Part shown: positions 1,091 through 24,543 of the stretch, in pieces
Numbering within the stretch: position 1 is the stretch's first letter
Layout: every line of letters begins with the position of its first letter
Source of the DNA: Candidatus Latescibacterota bacterium
GTDB taxonomy: Bacteria; Latescibacterota; UBA2968; GCA-2709665
NCBI GenBank assembly: GCA_965116875.1
Contig: OZ220733.1
Coordinates: 3,424,001-3,488,000 of the forward strand
Reading direction: 5' to 3'
Length of the DNA stretch: 64,000 nucleotides
Made by a program: the position numbers and the translations under genes
Notes under the pieces: model-generated
Databases searched by the model: none
What the model was told of the DNA's origin: nothing
Seen by the model: the letters and a program-made list of their open reading frames with translations, nothing else

Positions 1091-1291
1091 AGCCAAGCGG
1101 ACGTCCACGTAAAGATCGCCGTGTACTTCGCCGCCGGAACCCGACTGGTCTGGCTTGTGAAACCCGAGACCCGCATGGTACACGTCTACCGGTCACCACA
1201 GCAGGTCGAAGTTCTGGGACCGTAGGACGACCTCGAAGGCGGTGACGTGCTCCCCGGGTTCCGATGCCCCGTTCGGGGGCTCTTTCTTTAG
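1091..1291 (+). pseudogene. 3' remnant of a Uma2 (DUF820) family endonuclease gene
   Basis: Translates as KIAVYFAAGTRLVWLVKPETRMVHVYRSPQQVEVLGP*DDLEGGDVLPGFRCPVRGLFL*, the typical Uma2 C-terminus; no 5' half, in-frame TAG at 1223-1225; not in the ORF track. Confidence 0.8.
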
Positions 1292-1305
1292 GATCGTTCA
1301 TCACT

Positions 1306-3012
1306 ATGAGTCTCGAATTCGCGCTCACAGAGAATTTCGTCACGGTCTACTGTGTAGGTATTGTAGCGATCACTTCTATCTTGGCAATAAAGATGGCACG
1401 GAACGCGGTTCCCCTGTATGGTAGGCTTCGTAGCGCGAAGAAGGAATTGACAGACGTTAATGGATCAAAGGATTTCGTCGACGCGTTTGAAGAATACAAT
1501 ACCCATGTCGAGAAGGAACTGGGTCTTCCGTGGACGGAATTTGTAGAGACGCTGCTTCTTCCTGAACCTGAGTCTGGTGATCCCATCCGCAACACCGGTG
1601 ACGTGTCGCGGTACCTGAACGACGCCACCATTATATTTCCCAACATATCAACTGGTTTCTACCAAGCGGTCCCGAATCTGCTGACCGGCGTGGGCATCCT
1701 CGGTACGTTTCTCGGTCTGGCCGCCGGTGTCGGTGCAGCAAGCTCCGGTCTGGCCTCGAGCGATCCGGGAGAGATCACTACCGCCTTACATCGACTTCTG
1801 GGCGGGGCATCGCTGGCGTTCTGGACGTCTATTGTGGGAATAGTCTGTTCTATTCTTTTTGTGGTCGGCGAGCGGTCTGTCACTCGGAGACTACATATCG
1901 CGCTAGTCGATTGGGTTGGAGCCCTTGAGTCACGCTTGGAGCGGGTAACGCCAGAGGGCGTCGCGCTACAACAGCTTGAACAGGCAAGGCGTACGACGAC
2001 ACAACTCGAACGATTTAACACCGAATTGATTTTCTCTCTTGAGAAAGCGCTCGATGAGAAGATTGCGGGTCGGCTGTCGCCGCAGCTTGAGCAACTGTTA
2101 GAAGCGGTCGAGCAACTCCGCGCGGACCGGTCGACTGACAGCGGCCGGATGATCAACGATGCGCTCGACAGGTTCGCGGCCGCAATGCAAGATCGGGCGG
2201 GATCGCAGTTCGATGAGATGGCGTCGATAGTCGCCGACTTGAACCGCACACTGCAGGAGTCGGTTGCCGGACTGGCGCAGTCACAACAGGATGCCCGTAC
2301 GGCGGTCGATTCGGTCCTCACTGCGGTCACGACGTCTATGGATGAAGGTGCGAGCGCCATGAATAGGACGTTGAATGAGTCGCTGGTTGAAATCACAAGC
2401 GCCGTCGCGGCCGCATCTGAAGAAATGGTAGAACGAATGAAAACATCCAGCGCGACGGCTGCAGCTGAAATGTCGAAAACCGTTGGGTCCGTAACTGACA
2501 ACCTGCAGTCCGCGGCGGAGAGTCTCGATCAGTCCACGCGACAGAGTGAACAGGTCTTGAGTGGCATGACGTCGTTCGTCGAGAAGCTCAATGAGTTGCG
2601 CGGTACCATAGAATCGACACATCGCCATATTGGGTCTGCGACGGAACCTGTCGTAAGCGCCGCCCGCGAGATCCGCGAAGCGAGCGACAGAACCGCCGAA
2701 ACGCTGTCGACGACGAGCGACCTGGTGGGCCGCGTCGACGAAGTCGTGAATGCGCTTGAGCAGCACCAGCAGTCGATAGCAGACGCGTGGACGCGATACC
2801 AGGAGCGATTCGAAGACATCGACGGGTCACTTGTAGCGGTCTTCCGACAGATCGACGAAGGGCTGTCGGGGTATTGCCAGCAAGTAAGTGAGTTCGCCAA
2901 CGAACTTGATAAGACGACTTCGGGGACCATTAGAAACCTGGCTGGAGCAACCGCGGAACTCAACGAGTCCATTGAGGATTTGATCACGCGTCTACCTGGA
3001 TCGTCGCGATGA
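1306..3012 (+). CDS. zorA: Zorya anti-phage protein ZorA (MotA/ExbB-like TM region plus long amphipathic helical tail)
   Basis: N-terminal TM helix, PNLLTGVGILGTFLGL and AFWTSIVG motifs, long helical tail; start set at ATG 1306 because 1264 lies inside the Uma2 remnant. Confidence 0.9.
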   Translation: MSLEFALTENFVTVYCVGIVAITSILAIKMARNAVPLYGRLRSAKKELTDVNGSKDFVDAFEEYNTHVEKELGLPWTEFVETLLLPEPESGDPIRNTGDVSRYLNDATIIFPNISTGFYQAVPNLLTGVGILGTFLGLAAGVGAASSGLASSDPGEITTALHRLLGGASLAFWTSIVGIVCSILFVVGERSVTRRLHIALVDWVGALESRLERVTPEGVALQQLEQARRTTTQLERFNTELIFSLEKALDEKIAGRLSPQLEQLLEAVEQLRADRSTDSGRMINDALDRFAAAMQDRAGSQFDEMASIVADLNRTLQESVAGLAQSQQDARTAVDSVLTAVTTSMDEGASAMNRTLNESLVEITSAVAAASEEMVERMKTSSATAAAEMSKTVGSVTDNLQSAAESLDQSTRQSEQVLSGMTSFVEKLNELRGTIESTHRHIGSATEPVVSAAREIREASDRTAETLSTTSDLVGRVDEVVNALEQHQQSIADAWTRYQERFEDIDGSLVAVFRQIDEGLSGYCQQVSEFANELDKTTSGTIRNLAGATAELNESIEDLITRLPGSSR

Positions 3013-3890
3013 CGGGCGGCGACAAACAGATTCCGGACGCGGGTTCCGAAGGACAGAACTACCTCGCCACCGTAAGCGACCTCGTGTCGGCGCTCATATT
3101 TGTTTTCATCATCATGCTGGCTGTATTCGCGTACCAACTCGCAAACGTAATCGAGGATCAGGCCAAAGTCACGGATGAATTGACCGCTTCGGACGAAACG
3201 CGCGACCGCATGCTCCGAGACATCAAGAGTAGGCTCGAAAGATCCGGAATGCGGGTGGAAGTACTCGCTGATCAGGGTGTCTTGCGCTTGTCGGACAATG
3301 CAATCAATTTTCCGTCGGGCAGTGAGATTCCCGTTCCCAAACACCATATGAACGTCGGACGCCTCGCGCAAGCCATCGCCGAGGTGGTACCTTGCTATGT
3401 CTCTACCCCGAAGGCGGCCTCGGCAGCCCGCGACGATGACGACGTCGTGGTCGTGAAGTACGGCGATGACTCACCCACGTACTGCCAACCACGGGCCGAT
3501 CCCGCCAAATACCCATGTAGGGAGCAGGAATTTCGCTGGCTTCTGGAGACATTACTGATCGAGGGCCACACCGACGATGTACCGGTAGCTTCCGGCAATC
3601 GCTTCAAGGACAATCTTGAGTTGGCGTCGATGCGCGCAGCGACTGTCCATCGCATGATCGTCGCGTGCGAACCCGGATTGGAGGGTCTTCTGAACACCAA
3701 CGAATATCCCATTTTGAGCACAAGCGGGTATGGCTACACAAGGCCTGTGACCCGAGACCCGGAGCGGGCTGACGATAACCGGCGCATTGACCTGAGATTC
3801 CTGCTTGAGCCTCCCGCCGGGGCGCTGCACCAGAAGGCGCCGGAGGTCCAGACCGACGTCCACGAAAGGTATGATGAGGAATCACCGTGA
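3009..3890 (+). CDS. zorB: Zorya protein ZorB (MotB/OmpA-like)
   Basis: SDLVSALIFVFII TM helix with conserved Asp; IEGHTD, NLELASMRA and NRRIDLRF peptidoglycan-binding motifs; ATGA overlap with zorA. Confidence 0.92.
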   Translation: MTGGDKQIPDAGSEGQNYLATVSDLVSALIFVFIIMLAVFAYQLANVIEDQAKVTDELTASDETRDRMLRDIKSRLERSGMRVEVLADQGVLRLSDNAINFPSGSEIPVPKHHMNVGRLAQAIAEVVPCYVSTPKAASAARDDDDVVVVKYGDDSPTYCQPRADPAKYPCREQEFRWLLETLLIEGHTDDVPVASGNRFKDNLELASMRAATVHRMIVACEPGLEGLLNTNEYPILSTSGYGYTRPVTRDPERADDNRRIDLRFLLEPPAGALHQKAPEVQTDVHERYDEESP

Positions 3891-5650
3891 ATGCGCCCTC
3901 CCTGAAGGAATCGCTGGAGCGTTGGACCCGCCCGCAAAGGCTCCCACGCCACTTCGATCCGCACAGAACGCGTAAAGCAGCCGCAGAAGCAACGAAGACA
4001 CTTGGCGATGTCCAGCCGACAAAGCCAAAGGACTACGACCTTGAGATTCTGCATCGTAGGGTCGTGGAATTATGGCGTCGCAACCGCACTCTTTCTCGAA
4101 TCGTACCCCGTGATCTACGGCGTTTGCCGTGGGTTCTCTTTTACCCGCCAAAACAGACGCGTACCCGTTGGCTGGGTGCGGAACCACGCTTTCTGGAATT
4201 GTACGGCCGCTGGCTGATCGAAGGCCGCCGGTCCCGCGCCGTGATTGCGCTGCTGCACGAGTTTCTCCGTGTATATCCTGTCGGCTTGCGGACCTTTGGC
4301 GATCTGCGAAAAGTGCTGCATAAGGCCGTCAACAGCGGGTCATCGCTGCCTCCTTCTCTGCAGAAATGGCGAAAACGGTGCGGCGATTGGGAGCTCCTCA
4401 GTATGGGTGGCGATCGGTCGTTCGTGGAGAAGCTTCTCTCGGCGTCTGATGCCGTTGACGATATCCTTTTGCGTGCGGGGTTCGATCTCGGACTCGCACG
4501 CGCCGATTTCCTGAATTCGGGCATGCGGGCCTACCTCCCGCGCGCCGAATCGTTATTGAATCAAGGCCGCCTTGAGGCCGCACAAATTGACCGATTGCTC
4601 AAGCTCCTCGAATTCGACGGAAAACTGCGATTTGACAGTATAGCCATGCGCACCGACGTCGCGACGGCGCTGCTCCGTCCCTTTGTCGATCGATCTCCCG
4701 AACCGGCCACGAAGGAATGCCTGCAGCCATTCTTCCTGAGTCACTTCCGTGATCCTCGGCTGGGAATGGGGAAGCACAGGTGGTCAGGGGTTCCGGACGA
4801 AATCCGCCGTGTCGTAATCCGATGGCTCGTAGAACGAACACTCGAACAATTCTTCCTGCTTGTCAAGGAAACGGCACTCGACAGACACTGGCGCTACCGG
4901 GAAGCTTTCTGGCGGGCCTTTCACGAACACGGTCTGATCGATGACATCTGGTTTGTACTTGGTCCACGCGCAAAGGACATTCTGCGAAAGACGAACCAGA
5001 AGAACGACGAGTCGGAAACGAGCGCGGATCTCCACGGCGCCCAGGGCGACCAATCGGTGCTTGTTTTGCGAATGCCCGGTGTGACCATCGCAGAGTGGAG
5101 CCACAACGGCTCGTGTCGAATATGGCTCGATGGAAACAACGCAGCACCAGGGTTTTACGAGTCCAAATATTCTCGATATGATCTTATTGGCGGTGCGAAT
5201 TTCAAACAGGCGCACCAGGGAAGCGACCGCGGATTCTGGCAGGATAGAATTGCACAATGGTTGCGCGAAAATACTGGTGTCGAGATCGGTCGGAACGAGT
5301 ACTTTCCCGACCAGCTGCGTGAACGGCGAAACGACAGATACTCTCACATTGCATCCTCGACCCGGAGACAACGAATTCGGCCGGCTGCAGGCAGCAGGAG
5401 TCGCCCCGATCTACAATTCAAGCGAAAAAAGACGGCCGCGACCGTTATTCGGGAGTTGCGAAAGGTTCGGGACGCTGTAATCGGCTCTCCTAAGAGTCTA
5501 TTGGATCTACGTGATTTCATTAAATCGACCTCACCAGCATGGGCCGCATACGTAGAGGACCACGGAATTCCTGGTTATGAAACACAGTGGAAAACGTTAA
5601 CCGATCACTTGGACGCGACGATCAAACGTCTGCGAGTTGTAGGCAAGTGA
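3887..5650 (+). CDS. zorC: Zorya protein ZorC (EH-signature domain) with a basic C-terminal extension
   Basis: Follows zorB with a GTGA overlap; DPR...W, R..FW, IAEWSHNGSCRIW and H..S..W EH-signature motifs. Confidence 0.85.
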   Translation: MNAPSLKESLERWTRPQRLPRHFDPHRTRKAAAEATKTLGDVQPTKPKDYDLEILHRRVVELWRRNRTLSRIVPRDLRRLPWVLFYPPKQTRTRWLGAEPRFLELYGRWLIEGRRSRAVIALLHEFLRVYPVGLRTFGDLRKVLHKAVNSGSSLPPSLQKWRKRCGDWELLSMGGDRSFVEKLLSASDAVDDILLRAGFDLGLARADFLNSGMRAYLPRAESLLNQGRLEAAQIDRLLKLLEFDGKLRFDSIAMRTDVATALLRPFVDRSPEPATKECLQPFFLSHFRDPRLGMGKHRWSGVPDEIRRVVIRWLVERTLEQFFLLVKETALDRHWRYREAFWRAFHEHGLIDDIWFVLGPRAKDILRKTNQKNDESETSADLHGAQGDQSVLVLRMPGVTIAEWSHNGSCRIWLDGNNAAPGFYESKYSRYDLIGGANFKQAHQGSDRGFWQDRIAQWLRENTGVEIGRNEYFPDQLRERRNDRYSHIASSTRRQRIRPAAGSRSRPDLQFKRKKTAATVIRELRKVRDAVIGSPKSLLDLRDFIKSTSPAWAAYVEDHGIPGYETQWKTLTDHLDATIKRLRVVGK

Positions 5651-5814
5651 GATTCTCAGTTGAGATATTAAAGGCGATCAGTGGAAGGCGAAAGCACATG
5701 ATCATACCATCTTTCCGTTAGATTAGAAGGCTGGGAAACCGGCCGGTTTTAAACAACTGAACTTGAGCGCAGACTTGGGCCTTGTATATATCCCAGGCCT
5801 GTCGAACGTATTCC

Positions 5815-8784
5815 ATGCCAAAACACTTTGTTTGCAATCCGACGTCAGACGGCCTGATCGTCGAAATGAAAGGCGATCCTCCGGTCCCGGTCAGTGAATG
5901 GACCGCACATGCGACCTGCGCCGGCGCCTTGATTCGACTGCGTGACGACGGCGGTGCAGTTGAGAACGAGAGCGGTAACGCACTGTGCGTCTCCTGGACG
6001 AGCGTCGCGGGACTGACGGAAGACGAACTGCGATTCACCGGTCTTCCCGACGCCGCGCCATTTGGGCTCGAAGTCGTCGCCAACGGCGCGATTCACGACC
6101 CCGGGTTCGATATCCGCTGCGGCTACATCAGGTATGGTCGACGCGTCCTCGGTGTTGAGCGAATCGGCGCATGGTTGCACGCAGGTGACGAAAACTTCGT
6201 TCTGCTCGATCCGTTATACTCTGTTGCCGAAGCCATTGGTCAATTCAAAGGGGAAGAAGAAAGGGATCTTGAATCGCGGATGCTCGGATGGGGACGCATC
6301 GCGGAGAAGCTGCCTGCTGATGTTGTTGTCGATGACGACAACCTCCGTTCGCTGCAAATCTACGTGGCGTCGAGTTTCGAACTCAACCCGTTCGTCAACG
6401 ACAATGGAGAGCCCGACTTCGATCCGGTAGTCGGGAGGCGCAAGACCCTCGTCACCGACGCCGGCGAGGAGGAGCAGGTGTTCGCCCGCGCATTGCCCCA
6501 GGCTCGGCAGGAGGAGTTCGCTCGTCGTTTCCGCGGCGTATCCACCGTGAAACATCGGTATGCGGCAGGCGGCGCCAGTTACGTTGTTCTGACGCCGGAA
6601 GTCGAGCGGGCACTCGGGGTGGTGCGGCGTGCTCAGGATGGAAGCACCGATGAGCGCCGCGACTTTCTGAGGAATGTCAGCGGGTACCTGCGCGAAGCGT
6701 TTGATGACGACGACAGCGACGAGATCGAACTGGACAGCGTTTTTAACGACGAGGGATTGAGCGAACGGGTAAAGGGCGTCGGCATCTGGGTCGACAAGGT
6801 GCTCCCATGGATCACGCTGGCGAAGGAGCCATGGTTGCCGCCCGAGGAATTTGGGATTCTGGTCGATGGACGGCGCTTGGTAATGCGGCCCGAAGAATTG
6901 GAAGGAATCTACGGGCAAATCAAGAATGCAATCGAGTGCGGCGAACCAGCCGCAATTGCCCGAATCGGTAACGAGTCTGTCGAAATCCCTGCTGACGAGG
7001 CCACCCTTAGTGCACTTGAGGATTTGCTTTCCCGGTTAGACCAGAAGCCGACATTAAGACCCGAAGACCACGAGGAGCAGGTCGAACCCGAAGATTCGGG
7101 TCAGGTTCTGCAGGTCATCGATAACCTGGATGATCTTCAATATCGACGCGAACGCAAACGACGCGCCACAGGTATCGCGGCAACCGCCCCCGACCTGCTG
7201 ACTCGAACCTTGCCCCACCAACAGGATGGTCTCGCGTGGCTCAAGAGTCACTGGGATGCCGGCAACTGGGGCGCCCTGCTTGCCGACGACATGGGACTTG
7301 GTAAGACGCTTGAAGCACTGGCTTTTCTCTCCTGTCTGAAAAGCTACGCGGAAACGGAGAATTTGTCACATCGACCGATACTTGTCGTCGCGCCGACCGG
7401 CTTGCTCCAGAACTGGAAGGACGAACACGACAAACATCTGTCCGGTGTCGGACTCGGTGTCGCCGTCGAAGCACACGGAAGTGCTCTGCGGCGCCTCAGA
7501 AAAGGAACGGTAACCGGACGCGCTGGTGAGCTCGCCAGCGGTCAACAGCTACTTGACCTACAGCCTTTAAGGAACGCCGAATGGGTACTCACCACTTATG
7601 AAACTCTCCGCGACTATCAACACAGCTTTGGCCGTATACGTTGGCGCGCAGGTGTCTTCGACGAGGCCCAAAAGATCAAGAACCCCGGCGCCCGCGTGAC
7701 CGATGCCGCGCTCGCCATGAATATTGATTTCTCCCTGCTGATGACCGGCACGCCCGTTGAGAATCGCCCATCGGAAATCTGGTCGATGCTTGACCGGGTC
7801 GAGCCCGGTATGTTCGGAACGCTTAAGGAGTTCAGCCAGCGGTATGAAGTTGATAGTGAAGGCGGCGCCTCGATGCTTACGGAATTGCATGAAAGGTTGA
7901 CGTCGGCATCCGACGCGCCGGCGCTAATGCTGAGGCGGCTCAAGGAGGACCACGTTCCGGAATTGCCGAAAAAAGAGGTGTATCGGCGCACCGTACTGAT
8001 GCCGCCGTTTCAGGCTGAAGCGTACGAAAGAATCGTACAGAACAGTAGCGGCGGCAACATGCTTCAGACGCTTCATCAGCTTCGAAGCGTCTCGCTCCAC
8101 CCCGCGGCTCCAGGCGAGTTCGACCTCGACGAGTTTATCCAGGCGTCGGCACGGTTGTCAGAGGCGTTCCGGATTCTGGATGAGATTGAAAACCTCGGAC
8201 AGAAAGCGCTGCTCTTCGTCGAGACGCGCTGGATGCAGGATTTCCTTGTAGGAGCACTGAGACGCCGTTATTCATTGTCCGACGACGTACTCGTCATCAA
8301 CGGTGCAGTGGCAGGCAGGATCCGCAAGACTCGCGTTGATACGTTTCAGGAACGGACAGGATTCGACGTGATGATTCTGTCGCCACGCGCCGGCGGCGTC
8401 GGTTTGACGTTGACGGCAGCAAATCACGTAATTCACCTCTCACGCTGGTGGAACCCGGCGGTCGAGGACCAGTGTACTGACAGGGTATTTCGTATCGGCC
8501 AGCGGGAGACGGTGTACGTGTACCTTCCGATCGCGCGTCATCCTGAGTTCGGAGAGTACAGTTTCGATATTCGGCTTGACAGCCTGATGGAAGGAAAGCG
8601 AGACATGAACCGTCGCGTGCTCGCGCCAACCGCGACGACGAAAGAAGACGTGAATAGTCTCTATAGAAGTACCGTGACGGACGCGCGAGGCGACATTGAT
8701 GAGAATGATGAACGGGGTCGGCTTCCCGTCGCCAGCGAAGTGTCTGGCGACAGCAAACAGCATACGGCTGGGGGACCGTCTTAA
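5815..8784 (+). CDS. zorD: Zorya protein ZorD (SNF2-family helicase/ATPase)
   Basis: LADDMGLGKT, DEAQKIKN, TGTPVEN, GGVGLTLTAANHV and WWNPAVEDQCTDRVFRIGQ motifs, long N-terminal domain, position after zorABC; no C-terminal Mrr domain. Confidence 0.88.
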   Translation: MPKHFVCNPTSDGLIVEMKGDPPVPVSEWTAHATCAGALIRLRDDGGAVENESGNALCVSWTSVAGLTEDELRFTGLPDAAPFGLEVVANGAIHDPGFDIRCGYIRYGRRVLGVERIGAWLHAGDENFVLLDPLYSVAEAIGQFKGEEERDLESRMLGWGRIAEKLPADVVVDDDNLRSLQIYVASSFELNPFVNDNGEPDFDPVVGRRKTLVTDAGEEEQVFARALPQARQEEFARRFRGVSTVKHRYAAGGASYVVLTPEVERALGVVRRAQDGSTDERRDFLRNVSGYLREAFDDDDSDEIELDSVFNDEGLSERVKGVGIWVDKVLPWITLAKEPWLPPEEFGILVDGRRLVMRPEELEGIYGQIKNAIECGEPAAIARIGNESVEIPADEATLSALEDLLSRLDQKPTLRPEDHEEQVEPEDSGQVLQVIDNLDDLQYRRERKRRATGIAATAPDLLTRTLPHQQDGLAWLKSHWDAGNWGALLADDMGLGKTLEALAFLSCLKSYAETENLSHRPILVVAPTGLLQNWKDEHDKHLSGVGLGVAVEAHGSALRRLRKGTVTGRAGELASGQQLLDLQPLRNAEWVLTTYETLRDYQHSFGRIRWRAGVFDEAQKIKNPGARVTDAALAMNIDFSLLMTGTPVENRPSEIWSMLDRVEPGMFGTLKEFSQRYEVDSEGGASMLTELHERLTSASDAPALMLRRLKEDHVPELPKKEVYRRTVLMPPFQAEAYERIVQNSSGGNMLQTLHQLRSVSLHPAAPGEFDLDEFIQASARLSEAFRILDEIENLGQKALLFVETRWMQDFLVGALRRRYSLSDDVLVINGAVAGRIRKTRVDTFQERTGFDVMILSPRAGGVGLTLTAANHVIHLSRWWNPAVEDQCTDRVFRIGQRETVYVYLPIARHPEFGEYSFDIRLDSLMEGKRDMNRRVLAPTATTKEDVNSLYRSTVTDARGDIDENDERGRLPVASEVSGDSKQHTAGGPS

Positions 8785-8795
8785 TCTGCCGCGAA

Positions 8796-8815
8796 TTCGT
8801 TCCGAAGGGAACGAA
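8796..8815 (+). terminator. Hairpin just downstream of zorD
   Basis: TTCGTTCC-gaag-GGAACGAA perfect 8-bp stem; no clear U-tract. Confidence 0.35.
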
Positions 8816-9034
8816 GCAATTGACCAGCCATGGTACGCTCAGTTCGGGTGTTTTGGGTTGTGAAATTCTCAGGTATGTGGTTGTTGTATCGAAGGGTGTT
8901 TGAATTCATAACAGAACTGGTGGATAAGAATGAAAACAAAGGATTTAACGATTCAGGCATTATTCAAGGATGGGACTGTATACGTAGCCAGGCGTTATCA
9001 ACGATCCAGAGACCCGTCATGCGGTAGGTCTTTT

Positions 9035-10246
9035 TTGCGCAACATTGTCATTGCCCTGGTTGTCTTCTTCGCTTACGGAGTCGCTAGTGCAGTTCAGGAG
9101 CAATCTGTATTTCGTGATATGCGTCTCGTACTAAGCTTTTACGATGACGCTGATAATCCACTCTTGGAGATGAGCGCCCCGAACGTCGGGCAATCGTTCA
9201 CGATTTACATGTTTGTCCCTGAAGCCGCCGGGATGCGCTCGGTAGGGTTTCAGGTCAATTTCCAATTCCTAAACCTCCGGAACATGTATCGGTTTACGAC
9301 AATCCTTAACGGTAACGCTTACGATGGGTCGGCACTGTTTGTCAACGAAGAATATCCGCAGGTCTCCGCGCTCCTAGTGAGCAAGCCGACAATTCCGGCC
9401 TCCGGTTTCATCGGGTCGGTGACCTTCAAGGTGCTAGAAGCGCTCCCGGAGGGTAACCGCTGGATCTTTTCGGGTCACGCGTCGATGGGAGATCCAGACA
9501 CGAACCAAAACGACCGACTGAACACCGACGATGGCTTGTTGAAACTGATTGGCAAACCGCAATACGTCGTCGCGTCGATTCCTGGTGACCTGGACTTGGA
9601 CGGCGATGTTGATTTCAATGATTTCCTTATCTTCACCGGCAACTACGGACGGGTCGGAGATCCGCCACAGGTCCCGGAGCCCCAGACCGTTTATGTCACG
9701 GTTCGGGATACGGTCTATATCGACCGCCCTGGGGCGGACACGCCACAAATGGCCCGTGCCCACTTTATGCAAGGCTTTTGGCATTTCGGCACTGCTTTTT
9801 CAGCTGACCAACCGCATCTGATTGACACATTTGGGGGTTTTCTTTTGGGTGAAATCCTCCACCCTGATCCCGACGAATACCCGGAACTAAAGGGCGAAAA
9901 GGTCGTGATGGGCGCTGCCTTCGATGGTTCGTTGGCGGCAATGGGATATAATCCCGACAACGAAAACTACATTTTGAGTTACAAGTTTGTAGATGATGAC
10001 GACTTGGAAGATGAATCTCTAGAATTCAGAATGATACAGAATAGGCCGATAGGTTTTTGGGTCAGTCGAAACCCGCAGACAGGCCAGATTATCAGCAGTT
10101 CGCTCCATATCAGCAATGACAGCGGCAAGGGATACCATCCCAACTCCGGATTTGTGAATCGCATGGCATCTGCAAATAAGGTGGCCGAAAGCGTCCCGGG
10201 ACACATGAGGTTTGTCGAACGGCTTGCTCGAATTATCAACCAATGA
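9035..10246 (+). CDS. Secreted protein with a cohesin-like beta-sandwich and a dockerin/EF-hand-like motif
   Basis: Signal peptide LRNIVIALVVFFAYGVASA from TTG 9035 (ORF open from 8930); GDLDLDGDVDFNDFLIFTGNYG Ca-binding motif. Confidence 0.65.
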   Translation: MRNIVIALVVFFAYGVASAVQEQSVFRDMRLVLSFYDDADNPLLEMSAPNVGQSFTIYMFVPEAAGMRSVGFQVNFQFLNLRNMYRFTTILNGNAYDGSALFVNEEYPQVSALLVSKPTIPASGFIGSVTFKVLEALPEGNRWIFSGHASMGDPDTNQNDRLNTDDGLLKLIGKPQYVVASIPGDLDLDGDVDFNDFLIFTGNYGRVGDPPQVPEPQTVYVTVRDTVYIDRPGADTPQMARAHFMQGFWHFGTAFSADQPHLIDTFGGFLLGEILHPDPDEYPELKGEKVVMGAAFDGSLAAMGYNPDNENYILSYKFVDDDDLEDESLEFRMIQNRPIGFWVSRNPQTGQIISSSLHISNDSGKGYHPNSGFVNRMASANKVAESVPGHMRFVERLARIINQ

Positions 10247-10351
10247 TCCATAAAACACGGCAAGCGTGACAGATAGGCGAATTAACGATTGTTTTCTTTT
10301 GGCGAACTATAAATGAAAGTGTCGGGGTTTTAGAATATGTCGATAAAAGAG

Positions 10352-10382
10352 TTGACCTATCGAATAGGTCATTAGATATTAT
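10352..10382 (+). promoter_or_regulatory. sigma70-like promoter overlapped by a perfect palindrome (operator)
   Basis: TTGACC at 10352 and an AT-rich -10 region (GATATT/TATTAT at 10375-10382); TGACCTAT-cga-ATAGGTCA inverted repeat at 10353-10371. Confidence 0.55.
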
Positions 10383-10486
10383 GCTCTAAAGAGCAGCGGC
10401 TCGATACTCCTTTCGCCTTGTCCGGCGCTCAAAACCTGCCGTATATCGGCAAAAACGCCGGACAAATTTGAAAGGAGGTGGGGCAT

Positions 10487-10642
10487 ATGTCTCAGGCAAC
10501 CCACTATCGGCCTCGAAGATATGGGGGATATTTCACGATTTATCGCCCATACTTCACCTCGCCGAGGGGGCGTCGCATCTACGCTAGGGATTATGGGTAT
10601 AAAGCATGGCCTATTAAAATCCCGAATGACCGTCGTAGGTAG
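10487..10642 (+). CDS. 51-aa basic, Tyr/Arg-rich small protein (MSQATHYRPRRYGGYFTIYRPYFTSPRGRRIYARDYGYKAWPIKIPNDRRR)
   Basis: Strong SD GAAAGGAGGTG before the ATG, upstream promoter, downstream terminator; below the ORF-track cutoff. Confidence 0.7.
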   Translation: MSQATHYRPRRYGGYFTIYRPYFTSPRGRRIYARDYGYKAWPIKIPNDRRR

Positions 10643-10680
10643 AATTACCGCTCGCCGCGCCTGAAGTCGCCTGTTTCTTC

Positions 10681-10710
10681 AACCCCCGATCTTCCCGGAT
10701 CGGGGGTTTT
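10681..10710 (+). terminator. Rho-independent terminator
   Basis: AACCCCCGATC-ttcccg-GATCGGGGGTT followed by TT, between convergent ORFs. Confidence 0.75.
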
Positions 10711-10746
10711 CATCACCTTCAACCATTCACGCCAGGAAGTAGATGT

Positions 10747-11196
10747 CTAACAACCAAAGTCGCTTCGATTGTAATACAGGTAGATACCTCCGTTTAGCCA
10801 GGCTTCGGGTTTGGCGAATTGATATCGAATGAGAGTTTGTTTTGGATACATCCCGTTTTCAATAGCTTTTCCTATATACCAAATATGGGTGATATAACCG
10901 TGGCTCTCTCCTCTTTCTCCAGAACCATATGCCTGACGTAATTGCTCGAGAATAAACTTGAAAGTCTCACGAACTTTAGGGTCTGGCGATGGAAAAATGT
11001 ATTCCATTCCAACCAACATATCATTAAAAAACTGATATTTGATCGAATATGTCATCACAAGTGATTGTCCAGTGTATTTGTACCATTCATAGATATCTGG
11101 TCTGTTAATCAAAATTCTCCGATTGTTTATAATCAATGAGACGAATTTGAGAAGAGTGTTTTTAATGTTGTTAAAAAAGATCAGATGGTGTATCAT
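10747..11196 (-). CDS. AT-rich hypothetical protein, possibly 5'-truncated
   Basis: 149-aa ORF in an AT-rich segment, ends at the terminator; start uncertain. Confidence 0.4.
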   Translation of the reverse strand: MIHHLIFFNNIKNTLLKFVSLIINNRRILINRPDIYEWYKYTGQSLVMTYSIKYQFFNDMLVGMEYIFPSPDPKVRETFKFILEQLRQAYGSGERGESHGYITHIWYIGKAIENGMYPKQTLIRYQFAKPEAWLNGGIYLYYNRSDFGC

Positions 11197-11203
11197 ATGG
11201 GTA

Positions 11204-11566
11204 ATGGATTATTTAATGAGTGTATTTCAAAAGCAGATGGCTCATGGATCACGAAGTACTTCCTTAAACCCCTTATTATGGATATTTGGGGTGTTGCTTT
11301 TTTCCTTATTCGTCATTAATTGTAAAACAGAGTTCAGCGGCATATGCTATTTGATAAGTGGTTTTCTTGTACTGAACATCCTTGCCATTTTTGCCGCTTA
11401 TGCGTATTTCGCGCATAAAGATCCAGATGCATTAAGATCGGAGCGTTTCTCCATTCAGAAATTGGCCATTGAAAAAGGATACTATGGTGATACTCTCACC
11501 GGCCCTATTGAAAAGGAAGAGGTTTCGCAGTCAAGTAGTAAGGGTCAGGGGGTTATAGGTGAGTAA
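11204..11566 (+). CDS. Small two-TM membrane protein, hypothetical
   Basis: Two hydrophobic helices followed by KDPDALRSERF; AT-rich; overlaps the next gene. Confidence 0.65.
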   Translation: MDYLMSVFQKQMAHGSRSTSLNPLLWIFGVLLFSLFVINCKTEFSGICYLISGFLVLNILAIFAAYAYFAHKDPDALRSERFSIQKLAIEKGYYGDTLTGPIEKEEVSQSSSKGQGVIGE

Positions 11567-11870
11567 TCATTTTATGATTGCAGTTGAAAACCTTGATCAA
11601 GATGAACAGAAAAAACTTGCAGATTACTTATCTTCCAGAAATTGTGGCTGGTGGCATTGGATTAACGGCATGTGGCTAGTGGTCGATGGCGATGAGTCCT
11701 TGTCTGCTGAACAAATACTCGAAAACGTTAGAGAAATTGACACAGCCGACAACATTGCTTTGGTTATTTGTGTGCGGGTTCAGGATTGGGCAGGATACGG
11801 ACCAATGTCTAAAGAAAATGAAGGAAAAAATATGTTTCATTGGTTACAGAAATTATGGACGCCAGGATAA
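11559..11870 (+). CDS. Small hypothetical protein with a WWHW motif (possibly ferredoxin-like fold)
   Basis: 103 aa, GTG start overlapping the upstream stop, GWWHWINGMWLVVD motif. Confidence 0.65.
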   Translation: MSNHFMIAVENLDQDEQKKLADYLSSRNCGWWHWINGMWLVVDGDESLSAEQILENVREIDTADNIALVICVRVQDWAGYGPMSKENEGKNMFHWLQKLWTPG

Positions 11871-11990
11871 AATGGTCGGGGGTTTCACTCTACCAACTTT
11901 GGACGTCCATTGTTGAATAATAGAGAAATCCAGGGGGTTGATTGCGGCTGATTTGCTCTTTCTTTGACAAGTCAAATGAAGCTATATTTG

Positions 11991-12023
11991 AAACGGCCCA
12001 AGGGAACGCCCTTGGGCCGTTTT
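11991..12023. terminator. Bidirectional intrinsic terminator
   Basis: AAACGGCCCAAGGG-aacg-CCCTTGGGCCGTTT with A/T flanks. Confidence 0.75.
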
Positions 12024-12138
12024 GTTAATTGTTGTGAAGGGTGTAAATTACGCTTTATCTTATCGGCAGTCACCTGAAAGAATTTTAAGGATTTCAAGAA
12101 CAGCTTTGGGATCTACGTCGCCAACAGGAATCCCTACC

Positions 12139-12763
12139 TGCCAATATAGAGTGAGACAACTCCCCCTTTGAGATTAATGTCGTAAAATGGGCGGAGAGGC
12201 GAACACGACATGACGTCAAGAATCGATGTTGGAGACAACGGCAGCACGAGGCCGGATCCGGAGGCGCCGACGCGTGCGAAGCGTCGCCGGTTCACCGCAC
12301 GGTACAAGCTTCGCATTCTGGAAGAGGCGGATGCTTTCCGGGTTCCTGGCGAAGTTGGCGCGCTGCTGCGTCGCGAAGGGTTGTATTCCTCGCAGTAGAC
12401 CCAGTGGCGTCGCGCGCGTCGTGAGGGTACGCTTAAGGCGCTATCCAGGCCGCGGGGACCCAAGGGGCGTCGTCGCGACGAGGTCGCCGTCGAGAACGAG
12501 CAGTTGCGCAAGGAAAACGCGCGGCTGCGGCGACGGCTGGAACAGGCGCAGACCATCCTCGAGATCCAAAAAAAAGCCTCCGAGATCCTGGGCATCCCCC
12601 TGAACCCTCCGTCGACCGACGACGACGTTTGATACGTGCGGCCGAACATCTCGCCCCGAGTGTGGGGTTGGCTTCAGCCTGCCGGGCATTGGGTGTGGCG
12701 CGGGCGTCCGTATACCGTCATCGCAAGCCACATCCAACTCTCCGGGTCGGTCGCTCCGTTTTC
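12139..12763 (+). mobile_element. Truncated IS3-family element (orfA with nonsense codon, start of orfB)
   Basis: TG-start end at 12139; orfA 12210-12632 RRRFTARYKLRILEEAD...LLRREGLYSSQ*...LEIQKKASEILG with TAG at 12396; A8G slippery run near 12568; orfB ACRALGVARASVYR breaks off at ~12760. Confidence 0.85.
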
Positions 12764-12841
12764 TGTCAATGATCGCCCAAATGCGGCCACTGCAAGATCG
12801 GCCTAATCAGGCCATTGCAGGATCGCCTTAATCAGGCCACC
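12764..12841 (+). mobile_element. IS21-family-like terminal sequence
   Basis: TGTCAA start followed by three imperfect repeats with 25-bp period (12771, 12796, 12821; GATCGnCnnAATnnGGCCA), like multi-repeat IS21 ends; no istA/istB. Confidence 0.55.
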
Positions 12842-12960
12842 GGGCCTTATTGGCAAAACTCCAAGCCCACGGCTCTAAAAAATCACCTGAATAACCGGTC
12901 TGAAGACCTGATGTTGTAAAAGCCCAGGGGGGCGAAATCCTCCTGGGCGTTTACACATAA

Positions 12961-13038
12961 GGCTTGTCGGAACAGACGAAGCCGTTTACCTTTGAAGACA
13001 TTGATGAAGGGCGAAGCGAAAGGCGGCGAGGGTTTGAT
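12961..13038 (+). pseudogene. Diverged copy of the 3' part of the Phd antitoxin gene
   Basis: GLSEQTKPFTFEDIDEGRSERRRGFD aligns without gaps to GLWEHGKPITSEDIAEVRSEMWRKFD (13570-13647). Confidence 0.7.
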
Positions 13039-13392: not shown

Positions 13393-13665
13393 ATGCGCAA
13401 GATTAATCTCAACGAAGCGAAGACCTGTCTTGCGTCACTGGTAAAAGAGGTTGCCAAAGGCGAGGAAGTAATAATCACCGAGGAAAGCGGTCTGGCATTC
13501 AGACTCGTTCCATTGGAAAAGGTAACAGGTTCGTCTGGCTTGGATCAAGGCAGGCTTTTCAATCCCGAAGGCTTGTGGGAACACGGGAAGCCGATTACCT
13601 CTGAAGACATTGCTGAAGTGCGAAGCGAAATGTGGCGAAAGTTCGATCAGAAGGATGAAACATAA
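13393..13665 (+). CDS. Phd/YefM family antitoxin (no adjacent toxin)
   Basis: MRKINLNEAKTCLASLVKEVAKGEEVIIT is the Phd signature; GAAGGGG SD. Confidence 0.8.
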   Translation: MRKINLNEAKTCLASLVKEVAKGEEVIITEESGLAFRLVPLEKVTGSSGLDQGRLFNPEGLWEHGKPITSEDIAEVRSEMWRKFDQKDET

Positions 13666-23439: not shown

Positions 23440-24543
23440 ATGGAGGTCGTAAAGATGGCAGGTTCGGGGTGTGTTCGGGTTGGAATTCTGGGTCAGGGGC
23501 GAAGCGGACGCGACATTCACGCGGAATGGTTGTGCCGTTCGCCCGAGAAATATACCATCGTAGCCGTCTCTGATCTGCTGAGGGACCGCCGCGACCGCGC
23601 GGTACGCGAGTTCGGGTGCGACGCGTTCGCCGACTACAAGGACGTGCTGGCGCGGGAGGACGTAGACCTGGTCGTCAACGCATTGCCCAGCCATCTGCAT
23701 ACGCAAAGCACCGTGGAAGCGTTCCGTGCCGGCCGTCACGTCGTCTGTGAAAAGCCCGTGGCGGCAAGCACGGGTGACTTTCGCCGCATGGTGGCCGCGT
23801 CCCGGCGCTCGGGCAGAATCCTGGCGCCGTTTCAGCAGTCCAGGTACGCGCCGCACTTTCAACAGATACGCCGGGTGATCGACTCGGGCGTCCTGGGGAG
23901 AATCGTGCAGATCCGCATTGCGTTCAACGGATTCGCGCGCCGGTGGGACTGGCAGACCCTCCAGGAATTCAAGGGCGGCAACCTCCTGAATACGGGGCCG
24001 CACCCGATGGATCAGGCGCTCTGTCTGCTGGATTGGAAAAAGCCCGCCGTGCAATGCATCATGGACCGGACGAATACCTACGGCGACGCGGAGGACCACG
24101 TAAAGGTGCTGCTGCAGCGGAAGGGGTCGCCCACGATCGATCTGGAGATCTCCTCGTGCGACGCCTTTTCCGGGGACATGTACCGCGTCTACGGGACCCG
24201 TGGCGGGCTGGCGGGCGGTTCCGGCGGCGTCAGGTGGCGGTTTTACGATCCCGGTGCATCGCCGATACAGCGGCTGACGCGTACGCCGCTGCCCGGTCCG
24301 AGCTATTGCAGGGAGGAGTTGGCGTGGACCGAGGCGTCGTGGGCGCCCGATGAAGCGGAGAAGGATGCGTTTACGTTTATGTCCCGAGCGTTTTACGATC
24401 ATCTGCATCAGGTCCTGAAGGGAGGTGCGCCATTGTATATTACGCCCGAACAGGTCGCCGTGCAGGTGGCGGTGATGGAGGAATGCCACAGGCAGAATCC
24501 GCTGTCCAGGCGGAAGACAAGAGGCTGGAAAAACGGGAGTTAA
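23440..24543 (+). CDS. Gfo/Idh/MocA family oxidoreductase
   Basis: GQGRSG Rossmann motif, VCEKP, GGNLLNTGPHPMD. Confidence 0.9.
   Translation: MEVVKMAGSGCVRVGILGQGRSGRDIHAEWLCRSPEKYTIVAVSDLLRDRRDRAVREFGCDAFADYKDVLAREDVDLVVNALPSHLHTQSTVEAFRAGRHVVCEKPVAASTGDFRRMVAASRRSGRILAPFQQSRYAPHFQQIRRVIDSGVLGRIVQIRIAFNGFARRWDWQTLQEFKGGNLLNTGPHPMDQALCLLDWKKPAVQCIMDRTNTYGDAEDHVKVLLQRKGSPTIDLEISSCDAFSGDMYRVYGTRGGLAGGSGGVRWRFYDPGASPIQRLTRTPLPGPSYCREELAWTEASWAPDEAEKDAFTFMSRAFYDHLHQVLKGGAPLYITPEQVAVQVAVMEECHRQNPLSRRKTRGWKNGS

Follow-up and report, generated by a model that had tools for sequence, protein, structure and literature searches.

What kind of gene lies between a Zorya defence system and insertion-sequence debris in the genome of a Candidatus Latescibacterota bacterium? 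The question is raised by positions 10352-10712 of a 64,000-nucleotide stretch of contig OZ220733.1 (hereafter the window, to whose first letter all coordinates refer), where an earlier note, made from the letters alone, had described a hidden transcription unit: a promoter with a palindromic operator, a leader that sequesters the Shine-Dalgarno (SD) sequence, a 51-residue peptide rich in arginine and tyrosine, and a terminator, interpreted together as an undescribed riboregulated toxin or defence micro-protein in a defence island. The observation is confirmed, and the interpretation is partly supported. Judged by sequence comparison, the open reading frame (ORF) is a real gene, apparently never annotated before, and belongs to a widespread unnamed family. 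As to what it forms with its surroundings, the reading we prefer, which we hold to have about an even chance of being right, is a self-contained moron-type unit on mobile DNA beside the Zorya genes, with a basic and probably nucleic-acid-binding product whose translation, in this copy, is locked by its own leader.

Is the ORF a gene at all? The micro-protein is encoded at 10487..10642 on the plus strand (ATG at 10487, stop at 10640-10642) and comprises a conserved core, at about residues 17-43, with basic tails at both ends. A phmmer search of 1.84 billion cluster representatives returned 17 proteins at E<=1e-3, all of 38-70 residues, and the profile built from these matches retrieved 480 proteins at E<=0.01 among 839 candidates, all of them unnamed or labelled 'hypothetical'; the homologues that the earlier note had left to be sought in protein collections are thus in hand as a family. 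Its 107 aligned members share the core xxIFRPYITLKNGKRLYAxxYGxKAWPIxV, in which G28, A33 and G37 never vary and conservation at R20, T24 and Y32 is at least 90%, and the family medians are a length of 46 residues, a charge of +7.6, an isoelectric point (pI) of 10.4 and a grand average of hydropathy (GRAVY) of -0.76. Conservation is of the coding type: the ratio of nonsynonymous to synonymous rates (dN/dS) is ~0.1 among the copies in Veillonella phages, and loci L077 and L078 are separated by 15 synonymous and 0 nonsynonymous changes, a pattern that points clearly to purifying selection. Since the 480 profile matches and this conservation are joined by a contig from an RNA library that lies over the unit, chance is a poor explanation of the ORF, and the claim of an undescribed micro-protein gene holds.

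Genes of this size are routinely missed. The exact 51-residue window product is absent from ~15 billion predicted proteins, which fits its never having been called, although another called start would look the same. A word-index protein search with the window peptide gave no match; the window protein has no match in Pfam, NCBIfam or PADLOC (the 107 members give only sub-threshold Pfam matches) and no significant one in PHROGs (one of the 107 matches a PHROG), and the family has no significant match among PDB sequences. A single-protein search of 100 relatives yielded nothing better than E>=0.003, and its best matches (genus g20), one conserved 47-residue frame unlike the family core, were judged to be chance. 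The family motif strings occur in no paper of the literature searched; the supplements of small-protein catalogues, which lay outside that search, may list the family without a function. The sole literature match to 'YARDYG' concerns RNA polymerase III promoters in bovine leukemia virus and was judged unrelated by its title. Longer or fused forms account for 29 matches, mostly mis-called starts. The 223-residue metagenome protein P0149 joins a HicB-family antitoxin (PF05534) and a ribbon-helix-helix-like segment in frame to a C-terminal family core; this may be a read-through or an assembly artefact and, as one record, was given no weight. Locus L089 was set aside, as what it shares amounts to 11 N-terminal residues embedded in a large, unrelated ORF.

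Is the gene transcribed? In one RNA-seq metatranscriptome run (X1), a single contig, 287 nt long and of depth 14, falls entirely within 10397-10683 at ~95% identity. Its ends lie 17 nt past the -10 box and in the first bases of the terminator stem, at its foot, and it has no unlike flanks. Its limits coincide almost exactly with those of the predicted transcript, which hints at an RNA of just this extent. The run has no cover beyond 10397-10683 and is uninformative on the flanks, and a second run, X2, contains the whole stretch in identical form and is probably source DNA. Thirteen differences between the X1 contig and the window are listed and two further ones are unlisted. Within the ORF, codons 17, 24, 33 and 42 have changed synonymously, so that the changes in the core are all silent, and all five amino-acid changes (H6R, Y12H, F16S, K44R and N47I) fall in the tails; outside it, the single listed change, 10465 A>G in the leader, keeps its pair as G-U. 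Among non-coding positions, listed changes thus number 1 in 131, and among coding positions 12 in 156 (Fisher p 0.004, or p 0.06 if both unlisted differences are counted as non-coding).

What might the product do? With 11 Arg and 8 Tyr, the window protein has a pI of 10.98, a charge of +10.6 and a GRAVY of -1.34, and AlphaFold2, given the 107-sequence alignment, models it at a mean pLDDT of 81.5, 28 residues reaching at least 90. It predicts strands at residues 14-24, 30-32 and 41-47 and a helical turn at 33-36, flanked by disordered, basic tails, such that the core is predicted to be a compact three-stranded beta unit in which a short helical turn lies between a long hairpin and a third strand, with no transmembrane helix in the fold. 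The portrayal of the peptide as cationic, beta-structured and not hydrophobic is borne out. The predicted fold found no match in the PDB by Foldseek at E<=1e-3 and none at Z>=2 among 48,161 PDB chains by VIA-align; a search of BFVD returned two family members only, both uncharacterised, and the ESM Atlas unnamed clusters only. No PDB profile match came under E 0.2, and a resemblance to bL34 in that search (E 0.28) was judged compositional. From the extreme positive charge, the conserved Arg, Lys and Tyr on a small beta surface, and the lack of any hydrophobic segment, signal peptide or partner, we infer that the protein binds nucleic acid; it would act in the cytoplasm, contacting DNA, or RNA or the ribosome, through the beta surface and its Arg/Lys tails.

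How is the unit built, and how might it be controlled? The nested leader repeats, palindrome and terminator stem of the original description were recovered in place by an inverted-repeat search, and the SD and ORF likewise stand where it had put them. The 5' leader (10387..10486, plus strand) is, by repeat search and folding, a nested hairpin of three helices: an outer anti-SD/SD helix between CTCCTTTC (10407-10414) and GAAAGGAG (10470-10477), of 8 nt and 100% complementary; a middle helix between TTGTCCGGCG (10418-10427) and CGCCGGACAA (10456-10465), of 10 nt and likewise 100% complementary; and an apical hairpin, TGCCG/CGGCA (10437-10441 and 10447-10451). The SD itself, AAGGAGG (10471..10477, plus strand), ends 9 nt before the ATG and sits within the 3' arm of the outer helix. 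Folding of the 116-nt leader gives a single nested hairpin with the entire SD paired, at a minimum free energy (MFE) of -48.8 kcal/mol against a mean of -30.2 for shuffled sequences (z -5.12; equally good folds in 0 of 200) and with an SD pairing probability of 0.925. The proposed SD-sequestering leader is therefore upheld in silico, and on this modelling the primary transcript would be translationally inert. Compared with 400 start regions sampled from long ORFs of this genome, the leader ranks in the highest 9% for SD pairing and in the lowest 7% for MFE, and 1.5% of the sample combine the two, which makes the leader unusual but not unique; it is present in one copy in its own genome. The full mRNA is also highly structured (z -5.1), its 5' end being predicted to pair with the 3' untranslated region just ahead of the terminator. 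A scan of 9900-11300 with Rfam 15 gave 8 matches at E<=10, all far under the gathering score (best 18.9 vs 33 bits) and none covering the leader hairpin in sense, so that no known cis-regulatory RNA family is recognised in it.

The unit is closed by an intrinsic terminator (10681..10712, plus strand), an 11-bp G+C-rich stem (10681-10691 and 10698-10708, 11 nt, 100% complementary) with a 6-nt loop and a following TTTT. A 9-nt direct repeat, TTTGGCGAA, brackets the unit at 10298-10306 and 10810-10818, about one such pair being expected by chance per 700 nt. At its upstream end stands the sigma-70-like promoter candidate TTGACC-17-GATATT (10352..10380, plus strand; 9 of 12 consensus matches), whose position suits an X1 contig beginning at 10397; over the -35 and spacer of this candidate lies a perfect 8-3-8 palindrome, TGACCTAT cga ATAGGTCA (10353..10371, assigned to neither strand; 8-nt arms, 100% complementary), which is a candidate operator. 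The promoter with a palindromic operator has fared unevenly: the palindrome is indeed perfect, whereas TTGACC-17-GATATT is a chance-level call (3 promoter-like sites counted in this region, against 2.6 +/- 1.9 in shuffles) and the TATTAT named in the earlier note would need a 19-nt spacer.

How well does a leader-locked, moron-type unit stand up to this evidence? Several points weigh against it. Firstly, the promoter is the weakest element of the unit, its call being at chance level. Secondly, the transcript hint is one X1 contig from one study and from a 95% relative rather than the window strain, and contigs cannot prove strand, ends or RNA origin. Thirdly, an equally paired SD is found in 9% of the sampled genes of this genome. 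Fourthly, the lock may be a local peculiarity, since SD occlusion is not enriched in the family: in comparisons whose controls rest on heuristic gene calls and whose loci are not independent, mean SD pairing is 0.66 across 20 family loci and 0.60 across 40 control genes (p 0.15), and exceeds 0.8 in 30% of family loci vs 22.5% of controls, so that leader pairing, the conservation of which the earlier note had put up for checking, is not demonstrably a family trait. Finally, neither sequence nor fold gives a significant match to any characterised protein. Obvious anti-SD stems do occur in family loci L028, L029, L041, L045, L025 and L024; close relatives for a comparison of the leader itself were absent from the metagenome contigs (best 57% identity), and the leader pattern had no match in viral contigs. 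The third and fourth points would equally suit a hairpin devoid of any regulatory role, an RNA-stabilising 5' stem-loop or a chance structure, ahead of a protein made constitutively at a low level. Such a hairpin would have to accommodate, however, a pairing and stability reached jointly by only 1.5% of sampled genes, a z of -5.1 against shuffles, and a leader that is nearly invariant in a relative with 12 changes in the ORF and whose sole change preserves the pair; we consider it quite unlikely.

If the leader does act as a lock, is the unit a type I toxin-antitoxin system? The mRNAs of hok-, tisB- and zorO-type toxins, and the rpoS leader, are translationally inert as primary transcripts, and the window unit resembles them in its SD buried in a stable leader helix, in the 5'-3' pairing predicted for the full mRNA and in an activation that would need processing or a trans-acting RNA. 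It is unlike them in a leader with no known processing site, standby site or partner small RNA and with no match to an Rfam family at gathering score, and in its product: hok-, tisB- and zorO-type toxins are hydrophobic membrane peptides, whereas the window protein is strongly hydrophilic, and thus no membrane-inserting toxin of the usual type I kind. In a toxin-antitoxin system the peptide would arrest growth, and a cis-antisense RNA running on the minus strand from ~10583 to the palindrome (10371-10353) would block or destabilise its mRNA. A small stand-alone ORF of fitting size (51 codons) and without a protein partner, the sequestered SD, the predicted fold-back of the mRNA and non-coding parts better conserved than the ORF in the 95% relative would all sit well with such an arrangement, as would suitably placed minus-strand signals, namely a promoter-like site, TTAATA-16-CATAAT (10590..10617), and a weak terminator-like hairpin followed by a T-run on the minus strand of the palindrome (10371..10353). 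That promoter-like site, the only antisense candidate, is however at chance level, and its -35 carries two substitutions in the relative (10612 T>C and 10617 A>G); it was considered and is not supported, nor is riboregulation by an antisense RNA, and the toxin-antitoxin reading is weaker for that reason. Leader occlusion is, moreover, not family-wide, and some members are parts of operons, the one in L026 standing 6 nt ahead of cse1 and those of three loci following XRE-ImmA genes.

A precedent for a toxin of soluble character is nonetheless available in SymE/SymR of E. coli, described as a type I system with a DNA-binding toxin (PMC11997105). The window product is similarly soluble and basic rather than a membrane peptide, and control would similarly act at the 5' end of the mRNA, SD included; unlike SymE/SymR, the window locus has no supported antisense RNA. 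SymE is about twice as long as the window protein and has an AbrB-like fold, and none of the 107 members matches any AbrB, MazE or SymE model of Pfam at E<=10 (16 Pfam families were matched, none in the clan). Weighing both sides, we regard a type I toxin-antitoxin system as unlikely. The further proposal of a toxin or defence role meets with no PADLOC match for the window protein and no conserved partner in the loci examined.

What, then, does the unit most resemble? Phage morons are described as independent transcription units added between phage modules (PMC3594210), and it is most like a moron that the window unit would work: it has a promoter-like site and its own terminator, and the X1 contig spans just this unit. 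The family, too, is patchy and horizontally spread, as morons are. Of 168 genomes of the window's own phylum three carry the gene, one copy being broken, as does 1 of 70 genomes of another family (that of L026), and the family members, collected as loci with a closer sub-alignment, extend over many phyla and 17 viral contigs, seated on plasmids, prophages, insertion sequences and defence islands. Neighbours were compared in 19 genome loci, a set without L033, which abuts the end of its contig, and L037, which duplicates L035. In nine of them a gene for an integrase, recombinase, transposase or terminase is found no farther than 2.6 kb away, and prophage-type genes occur in two more; plasmid copies are known from Agrobacterium and Bacillus, and several homologues in deposited phage and plasmid records are unannotated. 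In three temperate phages (Bordetella phage vB_BaM-IFTN8, Microcystis phage MACPNOA1 and E. coli phage LLS), the gene occupies an accessory slot between lysis or tail(-fibre) genes and repressor or integrase genes. As in morons, terminators are commoner after the gene than after control ORFs: a terminator-like hairpin lies no more than 110 nt past the stop codon in 11 of 32 family loci and in 24 of 229 controls (Fisher p 9e-4, with the same reservations as to gene calls and independence). Unlike a moron, the window copy is outside any recognisable prophage, with no integrase near it and no tRNA in 1-30000 of the window; its product is in no described moron family, and some members are inside operons.

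Individual loci add detail to this picture. In the lambdoid E. coli phage LLS (PQ299149.1, ~24031-24171, minus strand; L062 3975-4115), an unannotated 46-codon member lies between gp27 (ImmA-like) and gp26 and is flanked on both sides by terminator-like hairpins; a search of E. coli genomes with this locus matched only its downstream part and not the ORF. Two contigs of one Planctomycetota metagenome-assembled genome (MAG; L035 and L037) bear copies of the micro-gene in which at least 3 kb of the surrounding genes has been duplicated with it, beside a SWIM-zinc-finger DDE transposase, and a transposase of the same family stands just downstream of the member in an Acidobacteriota MAG (L034).

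Do the neighbours betray a function? No constant partner gene was found among the family loci examined. Two neighbours recur: the SWIM-DDE transposase, downstream in 2 genomes, and a pair of HTH_3 repressor-like and Peptidase_M78 (ImmA/IrrE-like) genes, directly upstream and on the same strand in three unrelated loci (L028, L038 and phage LLS). The latter would suit a cofactor of lysogeny or element maintenance, a small DNA-binding accessory to a repressor, anti-repressor or recombinase (for example a directionality or architectural factor) that is harmless to the cell, as would the frequent proximity of integrases (L025, L038, L039, L058 and the Bordetella phage). A further pointer is the arm-type, AP2-like DNA-binding domain of tyrosine integrases, PF14657, which is likewise a short beta-sheet module presenting a basic surface; weak matches to its profile positions 2-26 come from 11 of the 107 family members. 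Every such match is under the curated cut-off, however (best 18.1 vs 22.3 bits), the hhalign profile-profile probability is 0.24% against 60 integrase N-termini in an alignment of limited diversity, the family is without the C-terminal helix of that domain, no PDB chain was found at Z>=2, and PF14657 was absent from 61 relatives examined; homology to the domain was accordingly rejected. Many loci, the window included, have no adjacent repressor or recombinase, and in L038 an AlpA-type excisionase-like gene is already next door. The cofactor reading is weakened by being based on three loci and sub-threshold domain matches, and we rate it as improbable, on a par with the toxin-antitoxin system.

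A role in counter-defence, or some other targeting of the host, is a different matter, in that the protein would inhibit a defence system or host enzyme by protein-protein contact and not by binding nucleic acid. That the gene is a small accessory one in phage moron slots and defence islands invites this thought, and so does the member of Alloalcanivorax venustensis ISO4 contig3 (L026, 3980-4126), which is enclosed by cas3 and cse1 in a type I-E operon, on the same strand and 6 nt before cse1. That cas context is nevertheless a single case, the gene being present in one of the 70 genomes of that family; the loci examined show no repeated association with any particular defence system, and the carriers are chromosomal islands and lysogeny operons rather than early lytic regions. 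We judge this explanation very unlikely, and return to the moron-type unit as the preferred reading of the locus.

In what setting does the window copy of that unit reside? A complete type I Zorya system occupies 1264-8784 on the plus strand and ends 1.7 kb upstream of the micro-gene (PADLOC, E down to 6e-287); it comprises ZorA1 (1264-3012), ZorB1 (3009-3890), ZorC1, with its EH signature (3887-5650), and ZorD1, an SNF2 helicase (5782-8784). The micro-protein itself matches no PADLOC model, those for ZorA-D included, and no Zorya gene was seen beside the other family members examined. None of 14 other genomes of the genus yielded a match to the stretch 8800-10745, and by this comparison the micro-gene is in strain-specific mobile DNA flanked by insertion sequences (IS), so that the defence-island setting first proposed is substantiated. 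Between Zorya and the micro-gene lies a 438-residue ORF (8930-10246) with no match in Pfam, NCBIfam, PHROG or PADLOC; it contains a dockerin-like DLDLDGDVDFNDF stretch and was likewise not found in the 14 other genomes. Downstream follows a patch of low G+C content (10747-12000; 38-41% vs 57-64% around it) with three small ORFs, and the ORF at 11123-11566 matches the membrane-protein family phrog_27377 at 1.8e-15. A copy of positions 10745-11105, 96% identical, lies next to the same IS in genome G012. The region 12131-13000 is fragmented insertion-sequence DNA, multicopy across the genus, with dozens of matches at 75-92% identity, and ORFs 12210-12398 and 12504-12632 have no Pfam match. Farther on, a Phd/YefM-type antitoxin gene (13393-13665; PF02604, 8.5e-8) has no obvious full-length toxin partner called adjacent to it.

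How would such a unit operate? If the preferred reading is right, the mRNA of the window copy would be made but translationally silent, as the anti-SD CUCCUUUC would be transcribed ahead of the SD and lock it into a very stable hairpin, and the protein would be produced only once RNase processing, or an RNA or protein acting in trans, had opened or cut the leader, a logic resembling that of type I toxin mRNAs and the rpoS leader. Once made, the protein would work to the benefit of the mobile element, for instance by keeping rivals out or by modulating the host. A bolder proposal is that the family constitutes a new class of soluble, highly cationic mini-beta effectors, in which a single-gene, RNA-gated module coats or condenses nucleic acid (the nucleoid, the ribosome or incoming phage DNA) when the lock is released, as a type-I-like toxin or a minimal exclusion or abortive-infection device found in more than ten phyla, including a phage of E. 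coli K-12; this we think doubtful.

What would the finding mean? From Acidobacteriota to Veillonella and E. coli phage LLS, phages, plasmids and islands carry members of this family, whose confidently predicted mini-fold has no known relative. Phage LLS of E. coli K-12 is described as kept in a public phage collection (PMC12315714), which would make for a tractable test system. Should the protein prove to be a harmless accessory, it would still be a candidate new family for Pfam and PHROGs. Should it prove to be a nucleic-acid-binding effector under an RNA lock, it would provide a chemically synthesisable model protein of 46 residues and would widen the repertoire of type I toxins and morons beyond membrane peptides.

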